A DNA stretch of 64,000 bases from a virus: UHGV virus genome UHGV-2031204. One strand, written 5' to 3'. Position 1 is the first letter of the stretch; each line of letters opens with the position of its first letter. Below, in pieces: positions 3,236 to 43,387 of this stretch. A program made the position numbers and the translations under genes. The notes beneath the pieces were generated by a model. The model searched no databases. It saw only the letters and a program-made list of their open reading frames with translations, and was not told where the DNA came from.

Positions 3236-3240
3236 AAGTA

Positions 3241-6467: not shown

Positions 6468-6481
6468 GTAAAGGTAAAATC

Positions 6482-6925
6482 ATGACGCATAAAGTTTCTT
6501 TAAATTCCCTGGTTCTGGACTTTAAACGTACGAACGAGGGTAAAGGTGTACAGGCACAACGCGCACTGACTGGCCTGGTCGCATTCGCATTGGCTTATAA
6601 TACCGATATGCCCGATAATGGTCCGTTTGGGTCGAATGAAGTGTCGCAGCTAAAGCTTCGCCCGCTGATGAAAAATGTTGTTTCGGACGTAAACGAGCTT
6701 TATTGTGTCGATCTGGGCAGTATTGAAGATTTGACAGTGGCACTGTTTTGTAACCGCTACGATAGCGCTTGGGGTGGTCGTCGCGCTATTGAAAACTTCT
6801 CTGTCCGTGAGATTTTCAATGAAGCCTTGGGCGACGATGTATGGGATACCGTTAATCTGTGGCTGGAACGTTTCATGGAAACGGTGAAATTCTATATGGA
6901 AGAAACGCGAGGCGAGCTGGTATGA
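6482..6925 (+). CDS. hypothetical protein
   Basis: 147-aa ORF; stop overlaps the next start (ATGA). Confidence 0.75.
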   Translation: MTHKVSLNSLVLDFKRTNEGKGVQAQRALTGLVAFALAYNTDMPDNGPFGSNEVSQLKLRPLMKNVVSDVNELYCVDLGSIEDLTVALFCNRYDSAWGGRRAIENFSVREIFNEALGDDVWDTVNLWLERFMETVKFYMEETRGELV

Positions 6926-8592: not shown

Positions 8593-8598
8593 AAAAGA

Positions 8599-8642
8599 TT
8601 ACCCTACTCCCGGAGGAGTAGGGTAACTTTTATTATTTTTTC
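8599..8642. terminator. bidirectional intrinsic terminator (copy of the 3241 hairpin)
   Basis: ttaccctactcccggaggagtagggtaa plus T-run; differs from the 3241 copy by one loop base; sits between convergent genes. Confidence 0.7.
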
Positions 8643-11597: not shown

Positions 11598-12895
11598 CAG
11601 TTATTACCTGTCGGTAGTGAAGCGGCATTAGCGTTATCCAGTAATCCCGCTTTCTTGAGAATATGTTGGTAGTCTGCCTGGTAAACATACCAGGTAAGTT
11701 TGCGTCGTACGGAATCGATGTGTGGATAACCGTAATAGTTAAACAACGGTAGCAATTGTGGCGCGATGGGTACTAATTGGTCACTAGCAATCGGGATGAA
11801 GTTGCCCGATTGAATAGAGCCTGGTTGCGGGAGCATATCGGGATTAAAAATGGAAACGGTGCGGTTAAACATTTCCATGTATAATGGATCGTTAAACCGC
11901 GCACCGATAGCTTGCCAGTTAATAGTAATCGTAACATCGTCGTTTAACTGCGGTTTGGAGTTATCAACGTTCGCCATTTGTCCCGCGTTATCGTTCATCG
12001 GCCATGCGACACAAATCGTCCAGAAACGGGTGATGTTCCCTAAGGCATCGTAACGCATCCCGTAGATTCGCGATTGATAATCGATTCTGCGTTGAATGGA
12101 GTTACGCATTTTCGGACGGAACTTACCCATCTTCACACCAGACATATACTCCAGCCACACCCCCATCATTTTCATTAATGGGTCGCCATAGGGGTTGTTT
12201 AATGACATGCTGATGGAAAAGCTGTTGTTAACTTCATGGGTAGAGTCAACCATCCCCCACTGTTCACGCATTAAACCTTCACTTGCCATCCAGTTATCAA
12301 TAGATTGATCGGGTGCACCACTAAGGCTAATCAGCTGCGTACTGAGTATTGGTATGAACGCTTGTAGATTATCGAATTTTACTTGAGGCATAAACGGCGT
12401 ACCTAAGCGATTCTTCCGCCTACCGTTTTCCATAGGTGCGTCTGTAAACCCGAGTTCAAAATCAGGGTCAAGCGCAGCTAAAATCGAATAATCTATAGAG
12501 TCCTTTGGCTGCATTGCCATGTTCGACATTTTACGAGACTTAGCAATGTTGTCGTAACACAGGTTAAAATCGGGCCGGGTAATAAAAGTTAGTCCACCGT
12601 ATTCTCGGTTGATTGGCGTGGGGTTAGACGCCATCATATGGTTGAACCCCATGTAGGGGTTGGTCAAACGCTGCGCAGCAAGACCCAAACCTACAGTAAG
12701 ACGGATACGATCGTTCCATGCCGTAAGTTCAGTATTAGCGTCGTAAGGTGTCGGGGGGTTAGCATTACTAATCCGTCCGTCGAAATACCCTGCGACCGAA
12801 GGCACTGCGTCCGCATTATTCGGATTGTGGAGAGAATCGTCGTAATCAGTATTCGGGTCATACCCCGGATCGTTCTTATCTGTCTCGTCACTCAT
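11597..12895 (-). CDS. hypothetical protein (432 aa)
   Basis: Long minus-strand ORF; first gene of a two-gene minus-strand unit. Confidence 0.8.
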   Translation of the reverse strand: MSDETDKNDPGYDPNTDYDDSLHNPNNADAVPSVAGYFDGRISNANPPTPYDANTELTAWNDRIRLTVGLGLAAQRLTNPYMGFNHMMASNPTPINREYGGLTFITRPDFNLCYDNIAKSRKMSNMAMQPKDSIDYSILAALDPDFELGFTDAPMENGRRKNRLGTPFMPQVKFDNLQAFIPILSTQLISLSGAPDQSIDNWMASEGLMREQWGMVDSTHEVNNSFSISMSLNNPYGDPLMKMMGVWLEYMSGVKMGKFRPKMRNSIQRRIDYQSRIYGMRYDALGNITRFWTICVAWPMNDNAGQMANVDNSKPQLNDDVTITINWQAIGARFNDPLYMEMFNRTVSIFNPDMLPQPGSIQSGNFIPIASDQLVPIAPQLLPLFNYYGYPHIDSVRRKLTWYVYQADYQHILKKAGLLDNANAASLPTGNN

Positions 12896-12921
12896 CTTTA
12901 ACTCCGGAGTTCATTAGGAAA

Positions 12922-14028
12922 ATGTTAGAAAAAACGTTTGAGACAAGCGTTGTCTCTTTCCTCTCCAGACTTCCCATGCTGTTTCGTTCGCGTGCGGAGT
13001 CGATGGAGGAATTTAACTCAGTGCTCTATAACGAGCACATTACCTTAGTCGAACAAAGCCTGCTGGGTTTAGATTACCTTCCGGGAATTCTGGAGAAAAT
13101 CCAAATTTTGCTGGCAGGAAACCAATTAACGGCTATCTCACTGTTAACCGGTGTACCGGATGTTGACATTATCGGTACCCTGGATCAGGTCAGCACACGT
13201 CGTAGTGCGCTTGATAACGCAGTCCGCACCGGTTCCCGCTTAGCAGCGCTTGCAGTCGGCGAATCTGCCCGTTATGGTTTACCATCATACGATAAAATCG
13301 GCATTGCAGTCGGCGAATCTGCCCGACGGGTCGCCCAGGAATCAAAAGGTTCGGTCAGTGGCGGGAAAGGTGATCCGATTAAACAGCTTTTCGATCAAGA
13401 AGGGTTGTCCAACGGGAAAATGTTCTCAGTAACATTCGAACGTGACGGTAATAAAGTCGAACTCCCAATGCGTTTACGTTTGGATGTGAAATCCTTACCG
13501 ACCGAACAAATTGAAACACTGATTGCGTTCAGTGACCAGACGAAAACATTCTGGGAACGTTGGCTGCGTGCACGCGTTGGCGCGTTGAGTTACGTAAAAG
13601 ACATTGCGTTCTGTAACGACCTGGTAGAAGAATATCGTAAGAACCGTTATCGCGATAAGTCCGGTTATTACCGTAAGATGATGGAGAAGAAGAACGGTAA
13701 CTGGTTGTCTGGCCTGCTGTCTTTGGCACCGTCTATCAATAACGCCTCTTCCGTTATGGTGGTTTCTCAAGACACCATTGACGGCTTGACCGCACAACTA
13801 GGTGGTGAATTTGACGATTTCAATATCCGTCAGCGTGTGTTCAAAGACACCTTGACTGTCTACTATGTTGTTGTGGACACCACCTGGAATCGTGTCACTA
13901 TTTATACCCGTGGTCAGAACGGCTCTCAGGAACTCGATAAATCTGACTTTAGTAAATCGAAGTCTGGTAGCGCCGATGTAAATAAAATCATCGAAGCGTA
14001 TCGCTCTGGCGCTCAGCCAGTTCTTTAA
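12922..14028 (+). CDS. hypothetical protein
   Basis: 368-aa ORF with aggaaa RBS; contains an internal direct repeat encoding AVGESAR twice. Confidence 0.8.
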   Translation: MLEKTFETSVVSFLSRLPMLFRSRAESMEEFNSVLYNEHITLVEQSLLGLDYLPGILEKIQILLAGNQLTAISLLTGVPDVDIIGTLDQVSTRRSALDNAVRTGSRLAALAVGESARYGLPSYDKIGIAVGESARRVAQESKGSVSGGKGDPIKQLFDQEGLSNGKMFSVTFERDGNKVELPMRLRLDVKSLPTEQIETLIAFSDQTKTFWERWLRARVGALSYVKDIAFCNDLVEEYRKNRYRDKSGYYRKMMEKKNGNWLSGLLSLAPSINNASSVMVVSQDTIDGLTAQLGGEFDDFNIRQRVFKDTLTVYYVVVDTTWNRVTIYTRGQNGSQELDKSDFSKSKSGSADVNKIIEAYRSGAQPVL

Positions 14029-14991: not shown

Positions 14992-15552
14992 ATGTTTGAG
15001 CACGATAGTCCTGAATTTAATGTTGCTGTAGAGCGCATTAAATCCTACATGTCGATTTTATCGAAAAACCCAATCGACACACACGATGACGAGGTTATTC
15101 ACAAAACACTGGAAGCCGCCGCCGTTATTTTACCGTACTTTCGTCTGATGGCTGCGGATTCTTTGCAGCAAGTATTATATGACGAATATCCGCAGGTCGG
15201 ATTTACCTTTAATACGTTTTATAACGAAAGTGTAGATTTCTTGCTGGATGGTAAGCGACGTAATGTGACGTTAGGGCAGTGGTCGACTTTGCTGTCGTCG
15301 TATATGAACGATGTTCGTAACACGAAGAATGTTGAACAGACGGGTGCATTAGGCTCGCGTCTATTAGCTGCTGCGTTTGGTCGCCGAGGTACTGTACGTA
15401 ATATGGGCTCTGCTCACCAATCCGTTGAGTGTAGCAAACGTCTTTTATCTTATGCAGACCATGAACTGCTGGCACGCTGGATGACGCGCCCGAACGGGTT
15501 GTCCGACATGATCTCGTCGTTAGCAGTGTTTTTGAAAATCGCACGTCCCTAA
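14992..15552 (+). CDS. hypothetical protein
   Basis: 186-aa ORF with aggagagg RBS. Confidence 0.8.
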   Translation: MFEHDSPEFNVAVERIKSYMSILSKNPIDTHDDEVIHKTLEAAAVILPYFRLMAADSLQQVLYDEYPQVGFTFNTFYNESVDFLLDGKRRNVTLGQWSTLLSSYMNDVRNTKNVEQTGALGSRLLAAAFGRRGTVRNMGSAHQSVECSKRLLSYADHELLARWMTRPNGLSDMISSLAVFLKIARP

Positions 15553-15611
15553 GGGGGCCCCTCATTCTAGGGGCGTGTAATTGGGTTATATAACCAAAGG
15601 AAATAAACGAA

Positions 15612-18310: not shown

Positions 18311-18334
18311 CAGATATATATTACCTAGGTGAGA
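18311..18334 (+). promoter_or_regulatory. conserved promoter-like motif, copy 1 (cagatatatattacctaggtgaga)
   Basis: Identical 24-mer recurs at 26567 and, with 2 mismatches, at 54090; always just after a terminator and about 50 nt before a start codon; followed by an inverted repeat gagattac/gtaatctc. Confidence 0.55.
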
Positions 18335-26566: not shown

Positions 26567-26590
26567 CAGATATATATTACCTAGGTGAGA
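26567..26590 (+). promoter_or_regulatory. conserved promoter-like motif, copy 2 (cagatatatattacctaggtgaga)
   Basis: Exact copy of the 18311 24-mer, about 45 nt upstream of the small ORF at 26637. Confidence 0.55.
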
Positions 26591-27699: not shown

Positions 27700-27947
27700 C
27701 GCAAATTCAACAACTTGGATTAAATAAAAGGCTTAAAGCCACTAACAATCATCGAGTACAGATCTTCACCGAAAGGAGAAGTAACTACTAAATAAAATAA
27801 AGGGGTGTGACAGCACCCCTTATCAAAGCTTTAACTTTTCGAAAAGAGAAGTTAAAGCAGGGTACGCTGTAGCACCAGCGTACCCTTTACAGCACCACCA
27901 CGTTTCCGTAGTGGATTTCTTTAATCACCCTACAAAGAGGGCTTACC

Positions 27948-28121: not shown

Positions 28122-28345
28122 CAAATAAAGAGGAGGCGTGTCAGCGCCTCCCCTCCTCGTACAGTAACCTGCCGAGATGGTGGTCGTAGGTATAATAAAA
28201 AGGGGTGCACCACCACCCCTTTTCTTAGCTTTAACTTTTCCGAAGAGAAGTTAAAGCAGTAGAGACTGTTCCATCAGTCTCTACTGTACGGTGACAACGC
28301 ATAAAGTTGTTGACGTTTTTACAACATTACAAAAGGTAATGAAAA

Positions 28346-28507: not shown

Positions 28508-28650
28508 GTTACTAACTAATAAAGGGGGTGGCAGCAACACCCCCTACTTAGTTCAGTAGTTGTTTCCCGTTCATAATTAATAGCCTTCTGTTTTTTTTTG
28601 TTTTTCGAGACGCATAAGGGGTCATAAGGGGGAGCCGAAGCTCCCCAGAC

Positions 28651-30213
28651 TCAAAAGAGTTCGTCACCCATGCCGCCGGTAAATACGTTAATCGACGAGG
28701 CTGTTACAGTTTCTTCTTTATCACAATCCCATGGCAAAATGCCAACATCACGGAAAGGTATTACAGTATAATGATAAGCTTCTTTGGTATCAATAATGGT
28801 ACGGTGTTTACCGCGTTGTACTTCTAAATAGCTGTGTCCGCTGACGACACGTTTGTTAAAATACATCTCACCGTCAGCTTCGTTGTCTAAGCTAGAGCAG
28901 TTGTCGTAAAGACCACGACCAGGTAAGCTCTTACAGAAACTTGCTGGGTCGAGTGCTTTTAATTTTTTGCCTTCTGGTGAGATTTGGTGTGGTGCTAAGA
29001 GGAAACCACGATTACGTACCACTTGGATGTTTCGCGCGATACGATAAATTTCTTTAATGTCACTACCCGCAATACCGTTACCGTGCCCTGCTTTGCTGAT
29101 AGTACCGAAATAGTCTCCGCGTATTCCAGCTACATGATAACCTCGACGTTTTAGATCTAAAATCAAATCATTCAAATAGTGAATTTTAAAATCGGAGTTT
29201 GTGTGTTTTTGGAAAATATACTCCCAACCGTTTGCCCGCATTTTACTACAGAGGTAATCTGACATTTGTGCATTGTGTAGCGCTTTTTCTTCGTCAGTTG
29301 CCGTTTCAGGTGCAACCATTACCGGAGCTGTACCTTCAAAGTGTCCGTAAAGTGCTTGATACGCGTAAGCCAAGTTAACATCTAATTCGTTTTCTAAACT
29401 TAAATCCAGAATAACCGGTTGTAAGTCACCTTTAACATTTGCCATCACCTTTTCTGGGGTGTTGAATACAGGAATGCTAATAGAGAGCAATAAACTGAAT
29501 AATGACTTACAGTTAAAGGGTAGTGCGGGCATTAGCCAGAGTTCTTCGGTGATCCCTTTGTTACAGCCAAGCATTTGGTTAATTGCTTTCCACCCCGTAC
29601 GTAACCCATTACCTGCCGCTTTCTTACTGATAGAGTCGAATACATGTACGAAGGGTGCTTTATTGTCAGTAATCAATTCCCCTACCAGAGAAGGAATCTT
29701 ATTATGAGAGCGTTCACTGAACGTGGATAAGGTATCCTTAAGGTCGTTGAGCGCCGTTTGTAAATCAACACGCGTTTCAGTGCCGTTCAGTGCGCCTAAC
29801 GTACGACCCAATTTTTGTTTCAGTTGTACGCCTTGAATAGCTTGACGTAACTGAAAGTAGTATTGTGCTACTTGGCGATTAAGATGCTCGATGCGTGCTT
29901 CTGGTTCTTCTGGAATATCATCTTCCAGGAATTTGGTAATCGTATCGTATAGAGGACGTATTTGCGTAGTGGCCAGTTTCAAACGTTTCATGACGTTTGT
30001 GTGGTCGTAAGGCATACCGCCGTCTATGATGGATGTGATGATATCCTTGATTTCGACGAGGGCGGCACGTTCGTCACCTTCTTCTGCGTAATCAGGAAGC
30101 TTAGCCTCTAACAGCACTTTTCTTATGATGTCGTGGTCCTTTTCAGGATCGGTCAGAAGACTTTCAGCGTATAATGTGGCTAAGGCGGTTATCAACATCA
30201 TTTTGTTATTCAT
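28651..30213 (-). CDS. hypothetical protein (520 aa)
   Basis: Long minus-strand ORF; no recognisable catalytic motif found by eye. Confidence 0.8.
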   Translation of the reverse strand: MNNKMMLITALATLYAESLLTDPEKDHDIIRKVLLEAKLPDYAEEGDERAALVEIKDIITSIIDGGMPYDHTNVMKRLKLATTQIRPLYDTITKFLEDDIPEEPEARIEHLNRQVAQYYFQLRQAIQGVQLKQKLGRTLGALNGTETRVDLQTALNDLKDTLSTFSERSHNKIPSLVGELITDNKAPFVHVFDSISKKAAGNGLRTGWKAINQMLGCNKGITEELWLMPALPFNCKSLFSLLLSISIPVFNTPEKVMANVKGDLQPVILDLSLENELDVNLAYAYQALYGHFEGTAPVMVAPETATDEEKALHNAQMSDYLCSKMRANGWEYIFQKHTNSDFKIHYLNDLILDLKRRGYHVAGIRGDYFGTISKAGHGNGIAGSDIKEIYRIARNIQVVRNRGFLLAPHQISPEGKKLKALDPASFCKSLPGRGLYDNCSSLDNEADGEMYFNKRVVSGHSYLEVQRGKHRTIIDTKEAYHYTVIPFRDVGILPWDCDKEETVTASSINVFTGGMGDELF

Positions 30214-30226
30214 GGAGCATCCTTAA

Positions 30227-30751
30227 ATGCAAATTCGTTTTAGTCCACCGTGGGAAGTTCAACCTAACATAGATAAAGGCGCTGCCGTTAAAAGTATAGA
30301 ATTGCTCCAGGCAGGGTTCTTTAACTGGTTATATGACTGTCCGAATGGTTTCAGTTCTATTATCTTACCTGAAGTAAGTCGTTCTGCTATTTATAAAGCG
30401 TTAATGGCTCCGCCTGTGCTTCCAGGTAAATATTATGATCAGGTGTTACGTCTGGTCGAATCAGGCGAAAAGGTTTCCCTTGACGATTTATATGGGGAAA
30501 CAATTCCTTGTCGCGTACGTTGGGTGTTTACTCAACGTGGTGATACGATTGTGGCGTCATTTGCAGAAGCGAAGTCCGGTTCGGGTTTTTCTTCGGGTGA
30601 AGACCACGCTGCGAAAAAGATGTTCTGCGCAGAACTTTTTAAATATATGCGTACCAAGACTCGCGTCGTGGATGACTGCTTCAGTACCTCAACGCAGTTT
30701 GCCGCTAACGAAGTGCTGACGCAATTATACGCATGTCATTTATCTCATTAA
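30227..30751 (+). CDS. hypothetical protein
   Basis: 174-aa ORF; ATG only 13 nt from the start of the divergent minus-strand gene. Confidence 0.7.
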   Translation: MQIRFSPPWEVQPNIDKGAAVKSIELLQAGFFNWLYDCPNGFSSIILPEVSRSAIYKALMAPPVLPGKYYDQVLRLVESGEKVSLDDLYGETIPCRVRWVFTQRGDTIVASFAEAKSGSGFSSGEDHAAKKMFCAELFKYMRTKTRVVDDCFSTSTQFAANEVLTQLYACHLSH

Positions 30752-30763: not shown

Positions 30764-33058
30764 ATGAAAGATACCCGAATCTCTAATCTGGAGAAACTCG
30801 TACAAGCTGGTAACTCGCTGGTACAAAGCGTCATTAGTAACAACAGTGCTGGCGAAATGTGGAACACCATCGTTGCTGGTGAGTCTGTACGTAGCAACAC
30901 GAAAGTTTTTGGTACCCTGCGTGACGATGCTGCACAGCACTACGCAAACGCGTTTGCTGGCGGTAAGAAAATGTCCCACGCTGCGGAAGTTGCTTCTGCA
31001 ATGATTCTGGGTGCTGCTGGTCACGGTATGGACCTGCAAGAAAAAGTAGCGCAAGAATACGCTAAGCCAGAATTCCATAGCCGTTTTAACCTGGACGTTG
31101 CGATTCCTGGTTCCCAAGCTGGTAACGGCGACTGGGGCAAAGAGCGTATGGTTGTTGCTCAGGAATACTACACCAACAAAGATTACGACAAAAACCTGGG
31201 TCTGACCTGGACGCTGAACGTACGTGCTCTGGAAACTCAGTCTCGTTTTGCTGAGACTCTGTTCCCGACCATCACCGTTGACACCAACGATGTTGGTATT
31301 ACCGTACGTACCAAAGTGACCACCGTTTCTCGTGGTGTCATGCACGCGTTACTGACCAAAGACGTTGTTGAAGATCATCGTCGTAACCTGCACGAAGCGC
31401 TGACTGACCACACCGTTCTTCAGGACGAAGCGATCAACATCGTTCCTTACGTAATGGAAACCGGTGAAAACGCTGAATACTTCGTAAGCGAAGATCTGGT
31501 ACCGAACGAATCTGTTCGTCTGGGCCGCGTACCTCCGTACCCGACTAACTACCTGAGCTTTGCTAAAGACACTCTGAACCTGTTCCAGCTGTCTGCGCAT
31601 CCGGGTATCGTTCAGGAAGGTTACGACGAAACTGATGAAATCGCACCGGGTTGTGCTCTGGGCAGCCTGCTGATTTCCGTACGTAAACCGACCGAAGAAG
31701 CGAAAGCAGGTAAATTCATCAAACTGCACGTTCGTGACATGCAGTTCGCAACCTTCCAGCGTCCTGCTGAAGGTGATGGTCGTGAGCTGGTACTGCAATT
31801 CCGTCGTACTGCGTTCTCTCTGAATGCGAAAACTACCGACTGGAAAGGCGAAGCTATTCCGGCACTGAAATCACTGGAACAGAACTCCTACACCCTGCGT
31901 TATGTGATCACCATCAACATGTCTCTGTTCACTACCGGTCAGTTCGGTGGCAAAGTTGACATCGCTGGTCACAAACTGGAAATCGAAGGTCTGTACGACG
32001 CTACCGGTAACAAAGTTGATACCAAATCTGGTACCGGCAAAGTTATCCTGGACGGTCTGAAACTTGAACTGATGGGCTGGCGCTTCGATGGTACTCGTAC
32101 CAACGAAAACCGTCGTACCCAGGGTCTGCTGCTCGACCCAATCTGGGAACAAGAAAACTACAAGCTGCAATACGGTTCTCCGATTCTGACCAAGTCTCCG
32201 GTTGGCGTTGAATACGACGATACCGAACGTCTGGACGACCTGATTTCCGCAGTTAACATCCGTAACGAACAGCTGGCTATCACTCAGACGCTGTCTTACA
32301 CCGAAGCGGTACGTAACGCTGCTGCAAGCATGATCACTCCGTGGGACAAACCGGCCATTCGTGGTCTGGGCCGTCACTGGGTTGCTCCGTGGTTCAAAGA
32401 GTCTGACTACAACGTTGATGAAGTTGTACAGTCCCTGGATACCAAAGATGCACTGATCAACGCTCGTCAGGGCCTGGTACAGCGTATCGGTAATCAGGTA
32501 ACTCAGGCTATCCAGGAATCTCGCTTCATTCCTGCGCTGCGTCTGTACACTGCCGATCCGGACATTCTGCCGAAAGTTGTTATTGCAACTGACGAACCGA
32601 CTGCATCTATGCTGCTGCTGGTACAGGGCGACCAACGTCTGCTGGGCGATCGCTACGAATACGAAGTGATCACCACCAACGATGACCGCTGGCGTATCTA
32701 CAACGCAGCTGACGGTTCCTGGACTCGTCGTCTGCAATGGTTCCTGAAAGTTCCGACTGCGGACGATGGTTCCTACAACGTGCTGAACTGGGGTAACCAC
32801 TTCTGGTCTCCGATCATGGTTACCAACATCAACATTCAGCGTAACGGTTCTACCTCTAAAGAGCTGGCCGTACAGCCGCGTAACGCGCACATCTGCCACT
32901 GCCCGATCACTGGTCTGATCTGGGTTAAAGGCATCACCAAACTGGTTGAAGAAAAACTGGCTTACAATGTTTCTGTTGAACAGAACGGTCAGAAACAAAC
33001 CGAAGGTGGTGTAGCAGGTAACGTTGCTGGCGAAGGCAAAGCTGCTGCTGGTAAGTAA
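30764..33058 (+). CDS. highly expressed 764-aa protein; candidate major capsid protein (alternatively tail sheath or phage-nucleus shell protein)
   Basis: Very strong host-optimised codon usage over the whole ORF, unlike neighbouring genes; size compatible with the large capsid proteins of jumbo myoviruses; terminator follows. Function is inferred, not motif-based. Confidence 0.6.
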   Translation: MKDTRISNLEKLVQAGNSLVQSVISNNSAGEMWNTIVAGESVRSNTKVFGTLRDDAAQHYANAFAGGKKMSHAAEVASAMILGAAGHGMDLQEKVAQEYAKPEFHSRFNLDVAIPGSQAGNGDWGKERMVVAQEYYTNKDYDKNLGLTWTLNVRALETQSRFAETLFPTITVDTNDVGITVRTKVTTVSRGVMHALLTKDVVEDHRRNLHEALTDHTVLQDEAINIVPYVMETGENAEYFVSEDLVPNESVRLGRVPPYPTNYLSFAKDTLNLFQLSAHPGIVQEGYDETDEIAPGCALGSLLISVRKPTEEAKAGKFIKLHVRDMQFATFQRPAEGDGRELVLQFRRTAFSLNAKTTDWKGEAIPALKSLEQNSYTLRYVITINMSLFTTGQFGGKVDIAGHKLEIEGLYDATGNKVDTKSGTGKVILDGLKLELMGWRFDGTRTNENRRTQGLLLDPIWEQENYKLQYGSPILTKSPVGVEYDDTERLDDLISAVNIRNEQLAITQTLSYTEAVRNAAASMITPWDKPAIRGLGRHWVAPWFKESDYNVDEVVQSLDTKDALINARQGLVQRIGNQVTQAIQESRFIPALRLYTADPDILPKVVIATDEPTASMLLLVQGDQRLLGDRYEYEVITTNDDRWRIYNAADGSWTRRLQWFLKVPTADDGSYNVLNWGNHFWSPIMVTNINIQRNGSTSKELAVQPRNAHICHCPITGLIWVKGITKLVEEKLAYNVSVEQNGQKQTEGGVAGNVAGEGKAAAGK

Positions 33059-34261: not shown

Positions 34262-36037
34262 GTGTTTAAAGATGCAATCAAAAAGCTTAAAGAGAATGGT
34301 AAAATAGTACCCTTTAACCGTGCGATTGCGGAAGGAGTCGGTTATACACAAGCCAAAGATGGTATTCACGATCGTGTACATCGTATCTTGAAACGTGAGC
34401 TAGATTACCATCCTGTAGAGAACCCTCGTGTTCCTGAAGGTTTGGCCGTGTTGGGTGTTCGTTTAATGTCGCCGTTCGAAACTTTTATCTATAAGCTGTC
34501 TCGTTCAGAGAGCAGCAGGATGGATAAGCGTCGTGGGGTGATGTCAATCGCGAATACAGATGCGTATATGGTCATGTCGTCGTTCCGTATTCCTGGAGAC
34601 TCAAGACCAATCTCAAGACCGATTAACTTGCCATTCATTCGTCGTGGTGGGTTGATGAACTATTACGGAACAACGTATCATGTTGCACCTGTTATTCATC
34701 AGCCGGGTATCTGTCGTGAGCACGGCGGGGTGTTTGTTAATTTTGACTTTAAACGTAAAGCGTCATTAAAATTCTGTAAGCACCCGGTACGGATTTTAGT
34801 GAATGGGAAGAAAGAAGAGTTGTTCTTACCCGGAACAAACAATTTGTTTAAAGCCAAAAACGCCACACATCCTGATACGGACGAAAAGCCGTTAATGTAC
34901 TGGCTATTCGGACGTTATGGATTTAAGGAAGCCATCAAACGTTATACCGGCGTGGATGTAGAGATATATCCTGCATTCAAAGTACCTGAAATCGATCTCG
35001 ATAAAAAAGTAGTAATCAGTTCAGGTGAGCCTAAACATAATCGGTCGATTATGTACGTAGTGACGGTTCCTGCAGAGGCTTTACCAAATCTCGATAAAGC
35101 GGGATGGGATCAAAACGAGCACTTATTACTCGTGGCGATTTCTGCATTCTTTAAAGCAGCGCACTATTATTGCGGAAAGCAAGCGATTAAAAACGGCAAC
35201 GTTGTTCCTTTACCGCCGTTGTTTACCGCGATTAACGAACTTGCAATGGAGGACGATGTTGTAAACCTGAATTCCTCCGCAATTTGGCGGGAGATTTTGG
35301 GGAGAAGTATTGTTGGACTTAAACCGTCCGATATTGAACTGGCGCACAGCATGACGAAACACTATACGGAGTGTGAACGCTACGTTAACTCAACATTCCG
35401 TGGTGAGTTAATGATGTCAGATCCCGATATCCCGGACGATATGGATATGTTTGATTTCTTCTGGTACGCGACGAAGTTGATGGTGAGAACGCGCCTTACG
35501 AAACAAGGTGATATTCCGTCAATGTATGGAAAACGTCTGACCGTAACAGATTACCTGTTATTGGGTGAACGTGGCTTTACACCTACCATCGCTGCGATTC
35601 GTTTCCACTTGGGACAAACGGAAAATCGAACACCGGAGTCTTGTGCGAACATGATACGCAGTGCGTTGAATAAAGACATTGTAACCAGCCTGGTATTACG
35701 CAACATTACCGGCAATGGCGGTGTAAGTTATTTCAACGCTTCTACTGAGTCTATGGTGCTGGGGGTTTCAACCCATGCTATCAGCCAGACAGAAACAGAA
35801 TCAAAACGTAACAGCAAGGGCGGTAAGACGGTTAACCTTAATGACCGGACAAAACATGCCTCTGCATCTCATCTGGAATGTGGTAACGTGTATTACATTC
35901 CGAAGTCATCACCGTTCAAATCGGGTATTCTCAATCCGTATATGAAGACGAACACCCAACTGGTGATGGTACGTAATCCAAAACTCAACGAGTTGATCCA
36001 AGCAACCGAAGAAGACATTGCGAAGATTGGCCGTTAA
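34262..36037 (+). CDS. hypothetical protein (591 aa)
   Basis: Long ORF starting at GTG 34262, 6 nt after aaggag. Confidence 0.8.
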   Translation: MFKDAIKKLKENGKIVPFNRAIAEGVGYTQAKDGIHDRVHRILKRELDYHPVENPRVPEGLAVLGVRLMSPFETFIYKLSRSESSRMDKRRGVMSIANTDAYMVMSSFRIPGDSRPISRPINLPFIRRGGLMNYYGTTYHVAPVIHQPGICREHGGVFVNFDFKRKASLKFCKHPVRILVNGKKEELFLPGTNNLFKAKNATHPDTDEKPLMYWLFGRYGFKEAIKRYTGVDVEIYPAFKVPEIDLDKKVVISSGEPKHNRSIMYVVTVPAEALPNLDKAGWDQNEHLLLVAISAFFKAAHYYCGKQAIKNGNVVPLPPLFTAINELAMEDDVVNLNSSAIWREILGRSIVGLKPSDIELAHSMTKHYTECERYVNSTFRGELMMSDPDIPDDMDMFDFFWYATKLMVRTRLTKQGDIPSMYGKRLTVTDYLLLGERGFTPTIAAIRFHLGQTENRTPESCANMIRSALNKDIVTSLVLRNITGNGGVSYFNASTESMVLGVSTHAISQTETESKRNSKGGKTVNLNDRTKHASASHLECGNVYYIPKSSPFKSGILNPYMKTNTQLVMVRNPKLNELIQATEEDIAKIGR

Positions 36038-38409: not shown

Positions 38410-38425
38410 AAAAAAGAAAAGCCAC

Positions 38426-38470
38426 TCCGACCCCAGAAGGGTCGGAGTAAGCTCGAATTATTTTTTTTTG
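38426..38470. terminator. bidirectional intrinsic terminator between convergent genes
   Basis: ctccgaccccagaagggtcggag flanked by an A-run upstream and a T-run downstream; between the + gene ending 38409 and the - gene ending 38475. Confidence 0.7.
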
Positions 38471-38474
38471 CTAT

Positions 38475-41192
38475 TTAGAGAGTTTCGTCGGCGTTGTCGT
38501 CTGTACCGGTATCCGTCTCGTCTGTGTCTTCAGCAGAAACGTCTTCTTCCGTTGTCGTATCGGTTTCCGTCGTTTCATCATCAGACATGTCCAAGTCTTC
38601 ATCACCGCCCATATCGTCACCACCTAAGTCCTCATCGCCCCCTAAGCCACCGTCGTCTTCAGAGCCGCCATCGAAGACGCTGCCCCCGCCGAAGTTATTG
38701 GCGTCTTCAGGATTCAAATCAGCCGCTTTTGCTAAGGTTTCAACTTTACCTGTTGTGCGTTTAGCTAACTGAATCAGCGTCTTCGATGCTGCTGCGATTT
38801 CATCAGAAATCATCTTGACGTTTTCACCACGTTTATCTTCGTCGTAGATCAAATCAAACAGATCGGTTTCGATGCCTTGATTGCGTAGCCAGTTACGCGT
38901 ATAGAACGATTTAATCATCGTCTTGAGATCATCAGGCTGCATTTCGATACCTTCATTCTGAAGCATATTCGAAATATCGTCGGTAACAACCAGATCCGCC
39001 AGTTTCTCAATGAACTCATAGCGTTTATCAAACAGATCCGCTTGTGAAGAAGAAGCTGATGTGTCTGGTGGTGGTAAGGTGACTTTCATGCCATTGATGA
39101 ACTTCGCCAGATACTCCGACGTTTGTTTGGTCAAGTCTTCGCCTGTTACATTAGGATTCTGATTGCGAATATATTCAACGATAACACGAATCAGCTCTGC
39201 TTGTAACTTAGGAGAGGCTTGCAAACTGTTTGTCACGTAGCGTGTTAACGGCGTAGACAGAATTTCTTGTTTCTTCACGATTTGCTGAGTGACCAGCAGT
39301 GACTTGGAATAAATCTGCGAAGCAAATTCCAGGTTTTCCGGCGTCAAAACAAGATCCGGGTCTACACACGCGATGTGACAAGTACGACGGAGTAAGTTTT
39401 CATCGATTTGTTGATCAGGCACTTTATACTCAGGCGTTGTGTCCGAAACTGACACTTTATGACTGGCGTAGTATTCATTACCTGTCACGTTAAATGCAAT
39501 CCCGGCATTAGCCCCCATTGACCAAGCGTCATTGATATCACCCCACATCGGTAAACGACGGTTATAGGAGTTAAGGATATCTGATTTAACTTGGTCAACC
39601 GTTTTCTGACCGTTCATGTCATCTGGCGATAACTCGATGTCGTATTGCATGTGACGTGCTGAGTTCAACACTGAAGAGTTCATCGTTGCGAACAACAGCG
39701 CCATCCTGACCGTAGAGATGATAAAGGAACGTTCAGTGATAGACACCCCAATACCATCTTCGTTAAAGTCCGTTGCAAAGTAGCACAAGTTATTAGCCGG
39801 GATATAGACAACCTGTGTGTGACGTTTTGCGAGGTGACGTGCCAGCAGAATACGACCGAAAGTTTCGGTAATTTTCATGCTGATTTCAGCTCCACCCAAT
39901 GCCTGGCTTAACGCACGGGTAAATTCGTTCTCAGCAATCTCGCTACAACGGGCACTTAAACGATTGGCGATTTCCGGCGTTATACGAGAGGTATTACCCA
40001 AACCCAAATTAGAGCGGTTGATAATACTGTCTGTCATGCCATCGTTGTTAAGGTAGTTCATAAAGTTCGCGTCCCCGTAAAGTGAAGAACGTGAGTTGAT
40101 GAAGTTACCCATATCGTCAATAATGGTCAGAAACCCAATAGGGTTGCGAACGTCGTCGCCGATAACCAACGGTGCGGTAGACTCAGCAGGGAGTAAACAT
40201 TCGAAATATTCGATTTGGTTGTTTTCATTCATCGAAATAATCGGAATATCACCATAAGTCTGAGTTTTTGGTGTACCTTTGTACGCTTCGTTCAGATCGC
40301 CTAAGTTAATGAAGCCTTTTTCAGCCGCGTCACGCTGACGATCGTTAAACTGTTGATTAACTTCATACGGCGTAGCACCTGTCGGTGTGGCAGGCTTTTC
40401 ATATGCGGCTTGCTCTAATTGGCCGTAGAGACCAGTACGTGCGTTCTCATGAGCGATTCGACGATAAGCATGGGGTAGTAACGTGATACGTGGGTTGTCA
40501 GTGATCGAGATGTCCATTTCGAACTTATCTGAGAACATCTTATCGTGGTTACTGAAATTGATTTTCAGCGACTGCGGTCCTTTAACAGGCCCACGGACAC
40601 GACTCAGAATAGATTCCACACCCACCCGTTGCCCGTCTTCTTGCCCGTTGATTGGACCGAGAATACCGAGCTGGTCTTCGAAAAAGGCAGCTTGAGAACG
40701 ACGTACGGATTCGGTAGCGACTTTGGCGTCTAAACCGAACAGCTGGTCAAATCCGTTGTCCGAGATTATCATCACTGGACTTGCGCCTTTTGTTTTTAAC
40801 GCGTCGTAAATCCACTGATATAATTTCTTAGGTAATTGACGTACGTTATCATGATAATCACGCGTTGGTGCCAGTAGGTCATTACGTAAGTCAATTGGAA
40901 TGTCTGCGATGTTGTCGTAAATCAACGTGGTGTTGATTAAGTCTTTTGTCGACAGCAAGCTCGAAGTTGCAATGGTAACAATCGTTTCGAGTTCAGGTAA
41001 CGCATCAAAGATACGTTCCGCATTTTTGATAGTACGAATACGCGAACTTACAATTCCTGCAAGTTCCTGACGTGTTGGCGTAGAACCACCCTCGCTACGC
41101 GTACCGCGTTGTTGCTGGGGTGCTGGGCCCGTAGTTTTACGAAGAATTGCAGCTACGGCGGGGTCGCCCGTTAATTTACTAATATCGTCCAT
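38475..41192 (-). CDS. hypothetical large protein (905 aa) with acidic D/E/T-rich C-terminal tail
   Basis: Long minus-strand ORF; C-terminal ~80 residues are G/D/E/T-rich (DEDLGGDDMGGDEDLDMSDDETTETDTTTEEDVSAEDTDETDTGTDDNADETL). Confidence 0.85.
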   Translation of the reverse strand: MDDISKLTGDPAVAAILRKTTGPAPQQQRGTRSEGGSTPTRQELAGIVSSRIRTIKNAERIFDALPELETIVTIATSSLLSTKDLINTTLIYDNIADIPIDLRNDLLAPTRDYHDNVRQLPKKLYQWIYDALKTKGASPVMIISDNGFDQLFGLDAKVATESVRRSQAAFFEDQLGILGPINGQEDGQRVGVESILSRVRGPVKGPQSLKINFSNHDKMFSDKFEMDISITDNPRITLLPHAYRRIAHENARTGLYGQLEQAAYEKPATPTGATPYEVNQQFNDRQRDAAEKGFINLGDLNEAYKGTPKTQTYGDIPIISMNENNQIEYFECLLPAESTAPLVIGDDVRNPIGFLTIIDDMGNFINSRSSLYGDANFMNYLNNDGMTDSIINRSNLGLGNTSRITPEIANRLSARCSEIAENEFTRALSQALGGAEISMKITETFGRILLARHLAKRHTQVVYIPANNLCYFATDFNEDGIGVSITERSFIISTVRMALLFATMNSSVLNSARHMQYDIELSPDDMNGQKTVDQVKSDILNSYNRRLPMWGDINDAWSMGANAGIAFNVTGNEYYASHKVSVSDTTPEYKVPDQQIDENLLRRTCHIACVDPDLVLTPENLEFASQIYSKSLLVTQQIVKKQEILSTPLTRYVTNSLQASPKLQAELIRVIVEYIRNQNPNVTGEDLTKQTSEYLAKFINGMKVTLPPPDTSASSSQADLFDKRYEFIEKLADLVVTDDISNMLQNEGIEMQPDDLKTMIKSFYTRNWLRNQGIETDLFDLIYDEDKRGENVKMISDEIAAASKTLIQLAKRTTGKVETLAKAADLNPEDANNFGGGSVFDGGSEDDGGLGGDEDLGGDDMGGDEDLDMSDDETTETDTTTEEDVSAEDTDETDTGTDDNADETL

Positions 41193-41203
41193 TGGGGTCT
41201 CCG

Positions 41204-43387
41204 ATGCAGAGATTTAACATATTTCGTGATCAGAACATCGCGTTGGCGAAATCGCTGATTATTAAATCAGAATCAATCGCACAACAGATGAATCTGGCAA
41301 TAACCGAGAACGGCGGTTTCGTTTCCGATAACCGTAGTACGTGGCGATACTACCTGCATTTAGCAGGACAACGTCACGAAATGGATAAACCCATTTACAT
41401 CACGTCGCTCGACACGCAAGAGCAGATAGAATTAACGACAGCCAACCTGTCCCGTCATAAAAAGACCTCTAACGTTTTTCGTTCGAATGTCGAGTATATC
41501 GAGGCGTTGATCGCAACTTATCCCGAATACGCGGTTTATATTCGCGGCGTCTTTACGCCAATCGATTTAAATTACGCGTTACGTGTAGACGATTGTTCTA
41601 TTTTGTACTACGACAGCTCGTTAGTAGAATCACAAGAGACGTCATTGATTAGCCGACTGGAAGCGAGAATTCGTGCAGCCCACGTCCGGTATATGGCTGA
41701 GGGTTGGAAGGTCCACAACGATGCGTTTGTGTTAGCTTTCTATTGCATGTTGTTTCCGCAGCTACCGGGTATAATTGGTTATATTCGTTCTTCTTTACAG
41801 CATACGACAGAAACACACTCTTTCTTCGTTACCGAGTTTTTAGCTTCGCATCAGGAACTGCATGAGTTTATGCCGTATCTGACTCAGAAACAAAAATTCA
41901 TTCTTTATCGAAATATTCGATACTGGGAACGTAATTCAGGGAAAGAGGAGATCTTCGATTGGCAAATCGATGCGTTACTGACAGGCTGGGGAATGCCTGC
42001 GGTTGGGTATAATGTTGCGCAGCAGATTCACGAGCCGAAAGATGATGACGATTCAACCTTAACACCGTTGCCTATCGGTTATCAGCAATCTTTAAACTAC
42101 ACAGAGAAAGACTCTGGACGCGATTTGGATATTGTTACCACTACGGACATAATCCAAAAAGAGGTGGGGTTAGCGTATAACAACCCGGCGTACGAACCAG
42201 AGTACCAAGAAGACTTAGACACACGACTGAGGCTGACACAATACCCCAACTTAACGACGAAACTCGTAGAAGTAACCGCCGTTGACCCAGAAGCTATTGA
42301 GCGTTTTGAATACACACATAACCTCTTTAATGAATGGGTACATTTGGTAGCGAAAGGAAAGTATAACATCTATCACGAGATTCTTAACCCAACGAACGGC
42401 GATACATTAAAGTTAAGTTCGAAAGAACTGTTGGCACTGTTTTTGTACGCGGCGTATAAAGGTTACTCCGATGTTGCCCTTGAAGAAATCCCCGTATTTA
42501 ACGTTTTTGATGTCTTGATTAAACGTTGGGTGCCCTTCGATGAGATGGAACAACATCTTATCCCGAGTTGGGAGCACCGTTTCGACGCGCTGATTAACTA
42601 CTATACCGACACCCACACCGAGGTAGTCGGGACCATTCTCAGTGCCGACGAACTTTACGATACGATTAATGAAATTATCTTACAGAAGCGACGCCGTTGG
42701 CGTTACAGCCAAAACCGCCGTAAGATTCCCGATCGTGCTGCGGGCTTAATGCTGTTCGATTACCATTATCGTGATTATCGCTGTGATTTAAAGTTAAAGT
42801 ATCGTAACTACGACGAGTTCTTTAAGACCTTTGGGTTAGACTATACGTTGGTCTCTGCAGAGACGTGGCAAGATATTGCAGTCGATGCATTGAACACCGC
42901 AACAAACCTTGAAACGCGTGCAACCATTTCGCAATCTGAAATACAGCGCGCGATGGTTCGATTAATGACCACACTTTCGTCGTATACCGTACATTTTGCT
43001 GCGCGAATGGGGTCAGATTCTTACGACGTTATGGACCCGCTTTGTCCAATCTTAGGGGATATCCCTATGAGTGGGGAGGGTACAGTTACCATCATTGAAC
43101 CTCTCTTAGGCGTACAGTCAGTTACGCGACACCAATACATGACGACGGACAAAGTGCTCCCCGCAGCGCCGGTGATTAAAGAGCTGTCCATGCCGCAACA
43201 CATCAAACTACGGATGAACATTTACATGGGTATCCGTGTGAGAGTGAATCGGCAAGTCGTGGTGGATATTAATGAACCGACCACCGGGGTTGTTAAGGTC
43301 AAGTCTTCACTTGACGACTGGGCGTTAAACGAACAGGTGAAAATTAACGATCTCGAAGGGTTTACGTTAGACCAGCTACCTAAGTGA
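41204..43387 (+). CDS. hypothetical protein (727 aa)
   Basis: Long ORF; first ATG at 41204 (track start 41192 is a TTG); start lies 12 nt from the divergent minus-strand start. Confidence 0.8.
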   Translation: MQRFNIFRDQNIALAKSLIIKSESIAQQMNLAITENGGFVSDNRSTWRYYLHLAGQRHEMDKPIYITSLDTQEQIELTTANLSRHKKTSNVFRSNVEYIEALIATYPEYAVYIRGVFTPIDLNYALRVDDCSILYYDSSLVESQETSLISRLEARIRAAHVRYMAEGWKVHNDAFVLAFYCMLFPQLPGIIGYIRSSLQHTTETHSFFVTEFLASHQELHEFMPYLTQKQKFILYRNIRYWERNSGKEEIFDWQIDALLTGWGMPAVGYNVAQQIHEPKDDDDSTLTPLPIGYQQSLNYTEKDSGRDLDIVTTTDIIQKEVGLAYNNPAYEPEYQEDLDTRLRLTQYPNLTTKLVEVTAVDPEAIERFEYTHNLFNEWVHLVAKGKYNIYHEILNPTNGDTLKLSSKELLALFLYAAYKGYSDVALEEIPVFNVFDVLIKRWVPFDEMEQHLIPSWEHRFDALINYYTDTHTEVVGTILSADELYDTINEIILQKRRRWRYSQNRRKIPDRAAGLMLFDYHYRDYRCDLKLKYRNYDEFFKTFGLDYTLVSAETWQDIAVDALNTATNLETRATISQSEIQRAMVRLMTTLSSYTVHFAARMGSDSYDVMDPLCPILGDIPMSGEGTVTIIEPLLGVQSVTRHQYMTTDKVLPAAPVIKELSMPQHIKLRMNIYMGIRVRVNRQVVVDINEPTTGVVKVKSSLDDWALNEQVKINDLEGFTLDQLPK

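Follow-up and report, generated by a model that had tools for sequence, protein, structure and literature searches.

In the virus genome UHGV-2031204 a DnaB-like replicative helicase gene and its neighbour on the other strand begin 13 nt apart, and two further pairs of divergent genes are separated by 11 and 26 nt. As the first-pass annotation of this DNA had pointed out, such spacers leave no room for two conventional promoters, and the question is where the promoters of these genes could lie. The analysis covers a stretch of 64,000 nt of the genome (the window), and all positions are numbered from its first nucleotide.

Identity of the phage

The window belongs to a phiKZ-related jumbo phage of the SPN3US/Asesino clade. 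It is 75–84% identical at the nucleotide level to Asesino, phiEaH2 and SPN3US, and its gene order is collinear with that of SPN3US, Asesino, STsAS, Caitlin, Huxley, Kwan and CR5. Both a PhiKZ_MCP capsid (PF25620, E 3e-209) and a divDNAB helicase (PF20307, E 2e-125) are encoded, and the phage specifies a split multisubunit RNA polymerase. The latter includes a homolog of phiKZ gp123 (nvRNAP beta-like subunit; E 1e-20), which is the product of 34262–36037 and whose orthologues in the relatives are annotated as RNA polymerase beta subunit. In phiKZ, gp123 is the polymerase subunit that binds TATG (PMC12809450). On an alignment of ~21% identity, which is unreliable at this level, the residues F151, R155, H331 and Q466 of the TATG-binding pocket are identical here, H185, N186, K158, K190, N398 and Y399 differ, and Y406 is replaced by W or F. 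A search of the window against Rfam found no known RNA families, and no transcriptome from the SPN3US clade was found in the literature.

The divergent junctions

The first junction (J1) lies between the helicase gene (28651–30213, minus strand; phrog_3213 over residues 1–520) and a plus-strand gene for a 174-amino acid protein (30227–30751; phrog_8266), which is followed by the gene for the major capsid protein (30764–33058, plus strand). The small protein occupies the position of phiKZ gp119; since it shows no BLASTP similarity to gp119 it is a positional analogue only. At J2 the gene for a 905-amino acid virion protein homologous to phiKZ gp129 (38475–41192, minus strand; phrog_3004; BLASTP E 1e-36) diverges from that for a 727-amino acid homolog of phiKZ gp128 (41204–43387, plus strand; BLASTP E 5e-84). 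J3 stands between a two-gene minus-strand unit (8643–12895), comprising a tail-tube-like gene (11597–12895; PF23971) and a gene for a 984-amino acid protein (8643–11597; phrog_3248), and the plus-strand gene for a 368-amino acid virion structural protein (12922–14028; phrog_3239), which carries the same annotation in the relatives.

Direct reading bears out the ultra-compact nature of these junctions. The J1 spacer, GGAGCATCCTTAA, occupies 13 nt (30214–30226) between the CAT at 30211–30213 and the ATG at 30227; the J2 spacer, TGGGGTCTCCG, 11 nt (41193–41203) between the CAT at 41190–41192 and the ATG at 41204; and the J3 spacer 26 nt (12896–12921) between the CAT at 12893–12895 and the ATG at 12922. 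The distances of 13 and 26 nt reported at first are correct, while the 12 nt given for the ATG at 41204 is a difference between coordinates, the real spacer being 11 nt. A fourth divergent junction had been overlooked: 71 nt (5062–5132) separate the minus-strand DNA polymerase gene (3280–5061; phrog_3011) from a plus-strand ATG at 5133.

The junctions were compared with those of seven relatives from five genera, making eight phages with the window (seven at some loci); since these genomes are phylogenetically related they do not represent eight independent trials. Annotations and sequences of the seven relatives give spacers of 11–14 nt at J1, 11–15 nt at J2 and 21–29 nt at J3, and the spacer of the fourth junction measures 70–72 nt in five relatives. 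Each of the spacers of J1–J3 consists of two conserved Shine-Dalgarno sites on opposite strands, so that all six starts are preceded by such a site. At J1 these are GGAG for the plus-strand gene, 9 nt before its ATG, and AAGGA for the minus-strand gene, 6 nt before its ATG, and the string GGAGCA(T/A)CCTT is kept in 8/8 phages. The J2 spacer carries GGGG for the plus-strand and GGAG for the minus-strand gene; GGGGTCTCCG is kept in seven of the eight phages, the exception being CR5 with GGAG...CTCC. At J3 a palindrome, AACTCCGGAGTT (12900–12911), provides GGAG on either strand, and ACTCCGGAGT is kept in 7/7 phages. Within each spacer the two elements are complementary to each other, in part or in full (GGAG...CCTT, GGGG..CTCC and CTCCGGAG).

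Candidate promoters within the opposing genes

Sigma-70 promoters are the wrong yardstick for such a phage, because phiKZ-type phages use their own RNA polymerases, for which the 4-bp sequence TATG at the transcription start serves as late promoter (PMC7598289, PMC4666361). A sigma-70 divergent promoter region was rejected, the spacers being 11–26 nt long and sigma-70-like matches in the window being fewer than in shuffled sequences, with none at the junctions. A 23-nt AT-rich motif, considered as a candidate early promoter, was also set aside; its four copies are all intergenic and none is near a junction.

Our preferred reading, to which we assign a probability of roughly 60%, is that promoters of the TATG type, served by the phage polymerase, are embedded in the gene on the other side of each junction, so that they face each other and yield overlapping 5' leaders. 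The intergenic DNA at three ancestral strand switches would have shrunk to two translation-initiation sites, and the promoters would have been displaced into the coding sequence across the junction. They would be phiKZ-type late promoters, TATG with its G as the transcription start and usually a T-rich stretch before it. The suggestion of the first-pass annotation that promoters lie inside neighbouring coding sequence thus gains comparative support, from conserved antisense TATGs that are aimed across each junction.

At J1 the nearer plus-strand candidate (30124–30127, predicted start at G 30127) lies in helicase codons 29–30, 100 nt upstream of the ATG at 30227, and is perfectly conserved in 8/8 phages despite covering two third-codon positions, within the block TTCTTATGA. 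A second plus-strand candidate in the helicase gene (29703–29706, predicted start 29706) is 521 nt upstream of the same ATG and belongs to a 15-nt run kept in 8/8 phages. Directed towards the helicase is a minus-strand TATG in codons 14–15 of the gene at 30227 (30268–30271, G+1 at 30268), 55 nt upstream of the helicase ATG. The surrounding ACATAGATAA is kept in 8/8 phages, and third-codon positions of this gene are 57% conserved in codons 1–14 as against 22% in the remainder. In SPN3US (NC_027402) the orthologous TATGs are situated ~86 nt into the helicase gene, which ends at 69553, and ~41 nt into the gene that begins at 69568.

Within 210 nt of J2 or J3 there is no conserved TATG, which at first resembled a failure of the TATG model; whole-gene alignments located sites deeper in the genes. 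The plus-strand candidate at J2 (40402–40405, predicted start 40405) is 799 nt upstream of the ATG at 41204, is kept in 8/8 phages and is the sole antisense TATG within the first 1100 nt of the gp129-like gene. Its minus-strand counterpart in the gp128-like gene (41456–41459, G+1 at 41456), 264 nt upstream of the gp129-like ATG, is likewise kept in 8/8 phages, whereas the other antisense TATGs of 41204–43387 are kept in merely 1–2 of the eight. At J3 two plus-strand candidates in the tube gene (12637–12640 and 12353–12356, predicted starts 12640 and 12356), 282 and 566 nt upstream of the ATG at 12922, are each kept in 7/7 phages; the first 1100 nt of the gene contain no other antisense TATG. 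On the minus strand, the 12922–14028 gene has a single antisense TATG (13286–13289, G+1 at 13286), 391 nt upstream of the tube-gene ATG, with TCATACGATA kept in 7/7 phages. The fourth junction has a plus-strand candidate within the DNA polymerase gene (4947–4950), 183 nt upstream of the ATG at 5133 and kept in 7/7 phages. Several of the candidates are distant from the gene that they would serve (521–799 nt).

Most of the highly conserved TATG sites have in common a T-rich stretch at -10 to -4. Conserved TATGs also occur on the sense strand upstream of the capsid gene and of an internal-head-protein gene, and an intergenic one, conserved in 8/8 phages, is found 23 nt upstream of the ATG at 20849, directly past a terminator. 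The genes faced by conserved sites are those for the capsid, internal-head, tail-tube, gp128-like and gp129-like proteins, together with one replication gene, the helicase.

Conservation and depletion of TATG

Conservation was assessed on per-gene coding alignments, in which an antisense TATG reads as CATA in the sense of the gene, and for 255 tetramers. CATA ranks first: eight of its 27 copies are perfectly conserved against a background of 2.7% (binomial p 4e-7), and these make up 8/15 of the copies in junction-flanking genes and 0/12 of those elsewhere (Fisher p 0.003). It was first again in a second set of alignments, which had not been used in forming the hypothesis and which contributed the new site at 4950, facing the plus-strand gene of the fourth junction. 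When distinct genes are pooled, the figures become 9/21 for junction-flanking genes and 0/20 for the others (one-sided Fisher p ~8e-4, hand calculation). All nine perfect antisense TATGs are aimed at the gene across a divergent junction, and none lies outside the junction-flanking genes. The conservation of antisense TATGs is bimodal, each being kept either in 7/7 or 8/8 phages or in merely 1–4 of eight; third-codon positions elsewhere are 1–22% conserved.

In the coding sense TATG is the most depleted of the 256 tetramers (173 observed, 263 expected from synonymous shuffles; z -8.4). The depletion is present in all three codon phases, and TATC, TATA and TATT do not share it. These patterns show selection at the nucleotide level on TATG, which is kept at its putative sites of use and avoided elsewhere. 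Firing of the TATGs, the polymerase that would use them and any regulatory effect of the overlap are inferences.

Promoters of a class that has escaped recognition could lie closer to the genes, and the helicase, as a replication gene, may use a middle-type promoter. In its general form, which we consider unlikely, this explanation places promoters of another class (for example middle-type) in the spacer or in the first 20–40 nt of the neighbouring gene, with very short leaders, and the conserved TATGs would then have another purpose or be extra promoters. Over the initial ~40 nt of the minus-strand gene conservation is indeed unusually high, with GTTATCAACATCATTT at J1 (30188–30203) and GTTAATTTAC at J2 (41170–41179), the second of which resembles the phiKZ middle motif AAanTTACc, centred at -24 (PMC4666361). 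Furthermore, a fifth to a third of the mapped starts in phiKZ and 201phi2-1 have no known motif (PMC10914365, PMC11512511). However, both blocks also encode conserved N-termini and cover translation-initiation regions, and coding constraint explains them equally well; they have no motif in common, and J3 has no such block at all. A transcription start inside the spacer would also cost the mRNA its conserved Shine-Dalgarno site.

Terminators and read-through

Under the embedded TATG promoters each plus-strand gene would be transcribed from within the minus-strand unit. The plus-strand genes might instead lack promoters and be read through from plus-strand promoters far upstream, across the minus-strand units, as the first-pass annotation had allowed; we regard this as improbable. 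Hairpins flanked by an A-run and a T-run, acting in both directions, are found distal to the DNA polymerase gene (3240–3269), at the distal end of the tube unit (8598–8627) and at that of the gp129-like gene (38422–38450). The first two are near-identical, with fold z values of -5.6 and -6.8, and the third gives -5.6 and -5.9. Such strong structures should stop polymerases travelling either way. Read-through also leaves unexplained both the transcription of the minus-strand genes and the restriction of antisense TATG conservation to junction genes.

Read-through is a possibility for the helicase unit, where no canonical plus-strand terminator stands at the distal end. The hairpin found there (28629–28646) has no T tail on either strand, and the next one, on the minus strand (28523–28545), is followed by TTAT; a hairpin with TTAT is the terminator motif of phiKZ (PMC10914365). 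In that phage many transcription units overlap and full-length read-through transcripts occur commonly (PMC10914365). A bidirectional terminator distal to every minus-strand unit, as initially described, therefore holds for three of the four units and fails for the helicase unit, which has no clean hairpin with a T-run.

Bidirectional terminators composed of an A-run, a hairpin and a T-run between convergent genes have been reported for six regions in phiKZ and 15 in 201phi2-1 (PMC10914365, PMC11512511). Those of the window show no essential difference, except that the helicase unit is without a clean example. Weak hairpins with T-rich sites are situated between some candidate starts and their genes (12940–12956 on the minus strand; 12851–12870 on the plus strand).

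Start codons

The spacers would be of normal size if the starts had been mis-assigned, a possibility raised together with the original description of the junctions and one that we hold to be very improbable. Each of the six starts at J1–J3 is the first start codon of its ORF, except that at 41204, which is the first ATG and stands 12 nt after an in-frame TTG devoid of a Shine-Dalgarno site; the ORFs are open right up to the assigned ATGs. Some room for doubt is given by the tail-tube protein, about 40 N-terminal residues of which fall outside the Pfam and PHROG profiles, and by the helicase, which has more in-frame ATGs at codons 5–6. Yet a helicase start at Met5 would lengthen the spacer by no more than 12 nt, and all six ATGs, together with their Shine-Dalgarno sites, are positionally fixed in 7–8 phages while synonymous sites nearby vary. 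In four of the six junction proteins the PHROG profiles align from residue 1–2. Conserved start positions, Shine-Dalgarno sites and profile alignments of this kind therefore rule out that reassigned starts could open normal intergenic space.

Overlapping leaders and their possible consequences

With promoters facing each other, the paired 5' leaders (55–800 nt) would be antisense to one another and to the start of the opposite gene. The geometry of the candidate sites predicts that the transcripts overlap by 142, 1052 and 647 bp at J1, J2 and J3, respectively. Along these predicted leaders synonymous conservation is raised only in codons 1–14 of the gene at 30227.

Face-to-face promoters whose transcripts overlap in antisense, and whose polymerases can collide, occur in coliphage 186 (pR/pL) and in the excludons of Listeria. 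Those are host sigma-70 promoters located in intergenic DNA, and their interference has been measured; here, in contrast, the promoters are predicted, would be used by a phage polymerase and lie inside coding sequence, and interference is hypothetical. It is conceivable, although we are doubtful, that the arrangement constitutes a timing switch by which the helicase goes off as the capsid comes on, the tail and portal-region junctions being cross-regulated in the same way. Late TATG transcripts initiated in the helicase gene would carry capsid-operon leaders that run antisense across the start codon and ribosome-binding site of the helicase gene, and polymerases heading for the capsid gene would collide with those on the helicase gene, shutting off a replication gene at the onset of capsid synthesis.

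Middle and late promoters of phiKZ-like phages have been deemed unpredictable from sequence, bioinformatics failing on them according to a 2020 review (PMC7598289), and how a 4-bp TATG specifies a promoter is an open question (PMC4666361, PMC12809450). Functional TATGs would have a clade-wide signature legible in sequence alone, namely extreme conservation of those with a gene downstream and extreme depletion of the rest. If this is true, tetramer conservation and depletion together would furnish the first purely computational map of nvRNAP promoters in chimalliviruses. The sites would be natural test cases of a promoter that has to work within coding sequence while facing another promoter; the three junctions, if confirmed, would be compact and well-defined substrates for work on promoter choice by the polymerase, transcriptional interference and antisense leader overlap. 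There is a bearing on phage engineering too, in that a helicase, gp129-like or tail-tube gene that is deleted or recoded with synonymous codons could leave its divergent neighbour silent.

Comparison with phiKZ and distant relatives

The minus-strand units are found in all the relatives examined, phiKZ included. Their gene order and orientation at J1 are those of the phiKZ gp118 (helicase) | gp119–gp120 (capsid) region, which has a TATG-type promoter on the capsid side (PMC7618050, PMC4666361). The published oligonucleotide of P119L, the model late promoter of phiKZ (PMC7618050), maps within the phiKZ spacer, with TATG at L004 12612–12615, 47 nt before the gp119 ATG. In phiKZ that spacer is 211 nt long and holds the promoter, whereas here it is 13 nt and the conserved TATGs are embedded in the coding sequence on the other side, at 100 and 55 nt from the start codons; the J1 promoters would therefore face each other, unlike those of phiKZ. 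The spacer at the divergence of the helicase from the small gene and capsid gene measures 128 nt in 201phi2-1, 224 nt in RP12, 39 nt in Goslar, 32 nt in RTH11 and 28 nt in Deimos-Minion. The counterparts of J2, phiKZ gp128 | gp129, are orthologous genes that are likewise divergent and tightly spaced (35 nt in phiKZ); in the window the block is inverted relative to its neighbours when compared with phiKZ, and its 11-nt spacer contains Shine-Dalgarno sites only. phiKZ has a TATG within the gp128 coding sequence, 108 nt ahead of the gp129 ATG (L004 25253–25256).

The orientation switches are ancestral, because the helicase/capsid and portal-like junctions are common to phiKZ and five other distant genera. 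The notion that the minus-strand units are insulated modules inserted in the manner of morons, the tight junctions being insertion scars, draws on the fact that each consists of one or two opposite-strand genes, most ending at a terminator, and can be dismissed: the synteny comparison finds the same genes, oriented alike with respect to one another, in phiKZ, 201phi2-1, RP12, Goslar, RTH11 and Deimos-Minion, the units encode core functions (helicase, DNA polymerase, tail-tube-like protein and gp129-like virion structural protein), and no marked break in GC composition accompanies them.

As single-genome matches, to which no statistics attach, TATGs in four of the distant phages are suggestive. 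201phi2-1 has a P119L-like TATGTAGA, RP12 also has a match with TATG, and Goslar and Deimos-Minion each have a TATG directly adjoining the start codon of the opposite gene.

Phage identity and divergent junctions

The region shares 75–84% nucleotide identity over several kb with the Erwinia phages Asesino, phiEaH2 and Stratton and with Salmonella phage SPN3US. Among its genes are those for a divergent DnaB-like helicase (28651–30213, minus strand; PF20307), the phiKZ-type major capsid protein (30764–33058, plus; PF25620), a putative tail-tube family match (11597–12895, minus; PF23971), a DNA polymerase (3280–5061, minus) and a homolog of phiKZ gp123 (34262–36037, plus). On the strength of this identity and of the key gene matches we assign the window to a phiKZ-related jumbo phage of the SPN3US/Asesino type. 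The plus strand carries almost all of the genes and is interrupted by four short minus-strand units.

The first-pass annotation had described ultra-compact divergent junctions, and these are borne out by direct reading. At J1, the helicase/capsid junction, the start codon of the helicase (CAT, 30211–30213) is separated from the ATG at 30227 by 13 nt (GGAGCATCCTTAA); at J2, between the gp129-like and gp128-like genes, CAT 41190–41192 and ATG 41204 enclose 11 nt (TGGGGTCTCCG); and at J3, the tail-tube junction, CAT 12893–12895 and ATG 12922 enclose 26 nt. A fourth junction, J0, absent from the earlier list, has 71 nt between the DNA polymerase start (5061) and the ATG at 5133. Each junction start codon is the first usable start in its own ORF and is preceded by a Shine-Dalgarno site. 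Start-codon reassignment opening normal intergenic space finds no support, as seven relatives in five genera (Seoulvirus, Erskinevirus, Machinavirus, Wellingtonvirus and Derbicusvirus) are annotated with starts at matching positions; their spacers measure 11–14 nt (J1), 11–15 nt (J2) and 21–29 nt (J3).

In the cross-phage alignment the J1–J3 spacers rank with the best conserved of the region's non-coding bases, and each is made up of two ribosome-binding sites. The J1 spacer, GGAGCA(T/A)CCTT, offers GGAG to the plus-strand gene and AAGG(A) to the helicase; that of J2, GGGGTCTCCG, offers GGGG to the plus and GGAG to the minus gene (in CR5 the spacer reads GGAG...CTCC); and that of J3 contains a perfect palindrome, AACTCCGGAGTT (12900–12911), presenting GGAG on either strand. 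Since each spacer consists of these two sites, J1–J3 are, as judged from sequence, back-to-back translation-initiation regions with nothing else inside.

Ancestry of the strand switches

The helicase is also divergent from a small gene and the major capsid gene in six distant phages, where the helicase/small-gene spacer is 211 nt (phiKZ), 128 nt (201phi2-1), 224 nt (RP12), 39 nt (Goslar), 32 nt (RTH11) and 28 nt (Deimos-Minion). The counterpart of J2 in phiKZ is the gp128/gp129 junction, with a spacer of 35 nt as against 11 nt here; the J2 proteins match gp128 and gp129 with E values of 5e-84 and 1e-36, respectively. The suggestion that the minus-strand units are insertions fails, since the helicase/capsid and gp128/gp129 divergences are common to phiKZ, and the former also to five others; with the same junction layout in phiKZ and distant relatives, the insulated-module reading was likewise rejected. 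By this comparison the strand switches are old, and the degree of compaction is special to the SPN3US-like clade. The components (phiKZ-type promoters, bidirectional terminators and conserved synteny) are already known; in the accessible literature we found no junction described as compacted this far, to a spacer of two Shine-Dalgarno sites with predicted promoters facing each other from inside the flanking genes.

Candidate promoters

Phages of the phiKZ type do not use the host polymerase: early AT-rich promoters are read by the virion polymerase, and in the late promoters of the non-virion polymerase TATG is the only conserved element, its G being the start site (PMC7598289, PMC4666361). 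The tetramer is bound by gp123, the beta-like subunit (PMC12809450); the pocket that reads it in phiKZ is only partly conserved in the window homolog, in an alignment of low identity. The published template of P119L, the phiKZ model late promoter (PMC7618050), maps within the phiKZ helicase/gp119 spacer, with its TATG (12612–12615 of locus L004) 47 nt ahead of the gp119 ATG, whereas the orthologous 13-nt spacer of the window is without TATG. In Goslar (L012, 3962–3965) and Deimos-Minion (L011, 3997–4000), with helicase/capsid-side spacers of 28–39 nt, TATG abuts or overlaps the start codon of the opposite gene, and the 224-nt RP12 spacer (L010, 3777–4000) contains two TATGs facing each other; these single-genome matches resemble in-between stages of the compaction seen in the window.

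In the window the promoters probably sit, as TATG, inside the coding sequence of the gene across the junction, a location already proposed and now backed by comparison with relatives and by sequence composition. When J1 was aligned together with 210 nt to either side, two perfectly conserved blocks appeared within coding sequence, each with a TATG aimed across the junction: TTCTTATGA in helicase codons 29–32 (plus strand; G at 30127, 100 nt before ATG 30227) and ACATAGATAA in codons 14–17 of the plus-strand gene (minus strand; G at 30268 and 55 nt ahead of the helicase ATG). The other candidates, by coordinate of the G and distance to the start codon served, are 29706 (+, 521 nt) at J1; 40405 (+, 799 nt) and 41456 (-, 264 nt) at J2; 12640 (+, 282 nt), 12356 (+, 566 nt) and 13286 (-, 391 nt) at J3; and, inside the DNA polymerase gene, 4950 (+, 183 nt to ATG 5133) at J0. 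In most, positions -10 to -4 are T-rich (e.g. cttttcTTATG, ctttatcTATG, tctttttTATG, ttttatcgTATG). Several lie far from the genes served, and promoters of another, unrecognised class, nearer to the start codons, are a possible alternative; GTTAATTTAC at 41170–41179 resembles the phiKZ middle-promoter motif.

The embedded TATG tetramers were assessed gene by gene in alignments of the window and up to seven relatives, every tetramer being scored for perfect conservation and no sites being picked by eye. CATA in gene sense, that is antisense TATG, ranked first of 255 tetramers, above even those containing the tryptophan codon; perfect conservation of 8 of its 27 copies compares with a 2.7% background (binomial p 4e-7). 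Conserved copies make up 8/15 in the six genes flanking J1–J3 and 0/12 elsewhere (Fisher p 0.003), and they occur in all three codon phases, so a single codon cannot account for them. A second alignment set (window 570–14028, built from additional loci) again placed CATA first (4/18 conserved versus 2%) and contributed one new conserved site, 4950 (+). Over pooled distinct genes the counts are 9/21 in junction-flanking genes and 0/20 elsewhere (one-sided Fisher p ~8e-4, calculated by hand from the counts), conservation counts not being independent trials because the eight genomes are phylogenetically related. In junction genes the conservation is bimodal: an antisense TATG is kept either by every phage aligned (7/7 or 8/8) or by only 1–4 of 8, third-codon positions being otherwise 1–22% conserved.

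Against synonymous-codon shuffles of 58 window genes, coding-sense TATG is the most depleted of 256 tetramers (173 observed, 263 expected; z -8.4), in each of the three codon phases; antisense TATG is likewise depleted (ratio 0.71), and TATC, TATA and TATT show no depletion. The TATG bias of phiKZ has the same direction and is weaker. GATC (0.67), CTAG (0.42), AATT (0.73) and AAAA (0.77) are also strongly depleted; the avoidance of GATC could stem from Dam methylation in the host or from restriction pressure. Directly after a terminator, 23 nt upstream of ATG 20849, TATG is kept in 8/8 phages, the classical phiKZ late-promoter layout. Within coding sequence, sense-strand TATGs are also conserved ahead of the capsid gene (at 30437 and 30494) and of an internal-head-protein gene (at 15181 and 15454).

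If the candidate TATGs fire, both promoters of each junction would face one another, with predicted antisense transcript overlaps of 142 bp (J1), ~1050 bp (J2) and ~650 bp (J3), and each leader would contain the complement of the opposite gene's ribosome-binding site and opening codons. Third positions are 57% conserved in codons 1–14 of the 30227 gene, also the predicted helicase leader, versus 22% in its remainder, a hint that fits dual use; no comparable excess was seen in the other predicted leader overlaps. A hairpin, GAGACAAGCGTTGTCTC (12940–12956), followed by AAACGTTTTT on the minus strand, occupies codons 7–12 of the plus-strand gene at J3 and thus lies inside the predicted tail-tube mRNA leader; CR5 keeps it, the other relatives only in part.

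Terminators and other elements

The expectation of a bidirectional terminator distal to every minus-strand unit holds for three of the four, which end in an A-run/hairpin/T-run predicted to terminate in both directions (3240–3269, 8598–8627 and 38422–38450); it fails for the helicase unit, whose stop hairpin (28629–28646) has a T tail on neither strand. The next minus-strand hairpin after the helicase (28523–28545) is followed by TTAT, the phiKZ terminator signature (PMC10914365). Bidirectional terminators between convergent genes have been described in phiKZ and 201phi2-1 (PMC10914365, PMC11512511), for which shared terminator sequence motifs are also reported. Here the near-identical hairpin TTACCCTACTCCCG(A/G)AGGAGTAGGGTAA is used twice (3241–3268, 8599–8626), as is CCCTCTCTCCGTTTGGAGAGAGGG (58667–58690, 59714–59737).

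The 23-nt motif AGATATATWTYAYYTAKGTGAGA occurs four times versus 0 expected (18312–18334, 26568–26590, 54091–54113 and 59383–59405), always intergenic on the plus strand and often directly after a terminator. It probably serves this phage as its early (virion-polymerase) promoter; relatives have similar motifs at corresponding places. A hairpin-rich 1-kb stretch leading from the plus-strand genes to the helicase 3' end holds two copies of a ~90-nt module (27792–27878, 28192–28277), separated by small ORFs and without a match in Rfam; its order is hairpin AAGGGGTG..CACCCCTT, inverted repeat CTTTAACTT..AAGTTAAAG and a third hairpin. Within the gene 30227–30751, all 8 phages share the 23-nt stretch GTTCTGCGCAGAACTTTTTAAAT (30622–30644, plus) without a change, and outside the capsid gene no perfectly conserved run is longer. 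It forms a palindromic hairpin with a T-run after it, lies 120–140 nt upstream of the start codon for the capsid protein and could be an attenuator or protein-binding site. Lastly, the structured element CGCACGTCCCTAAGGGGGCCCCT...TAGGGGCGTGTA (~15538–15590, plus), upstream of ATG 15612, spans the stop codon of gene 14992–15552 and the leader of the internal-head-protein gene, with nearly perfect conservation in 8/8 phages.
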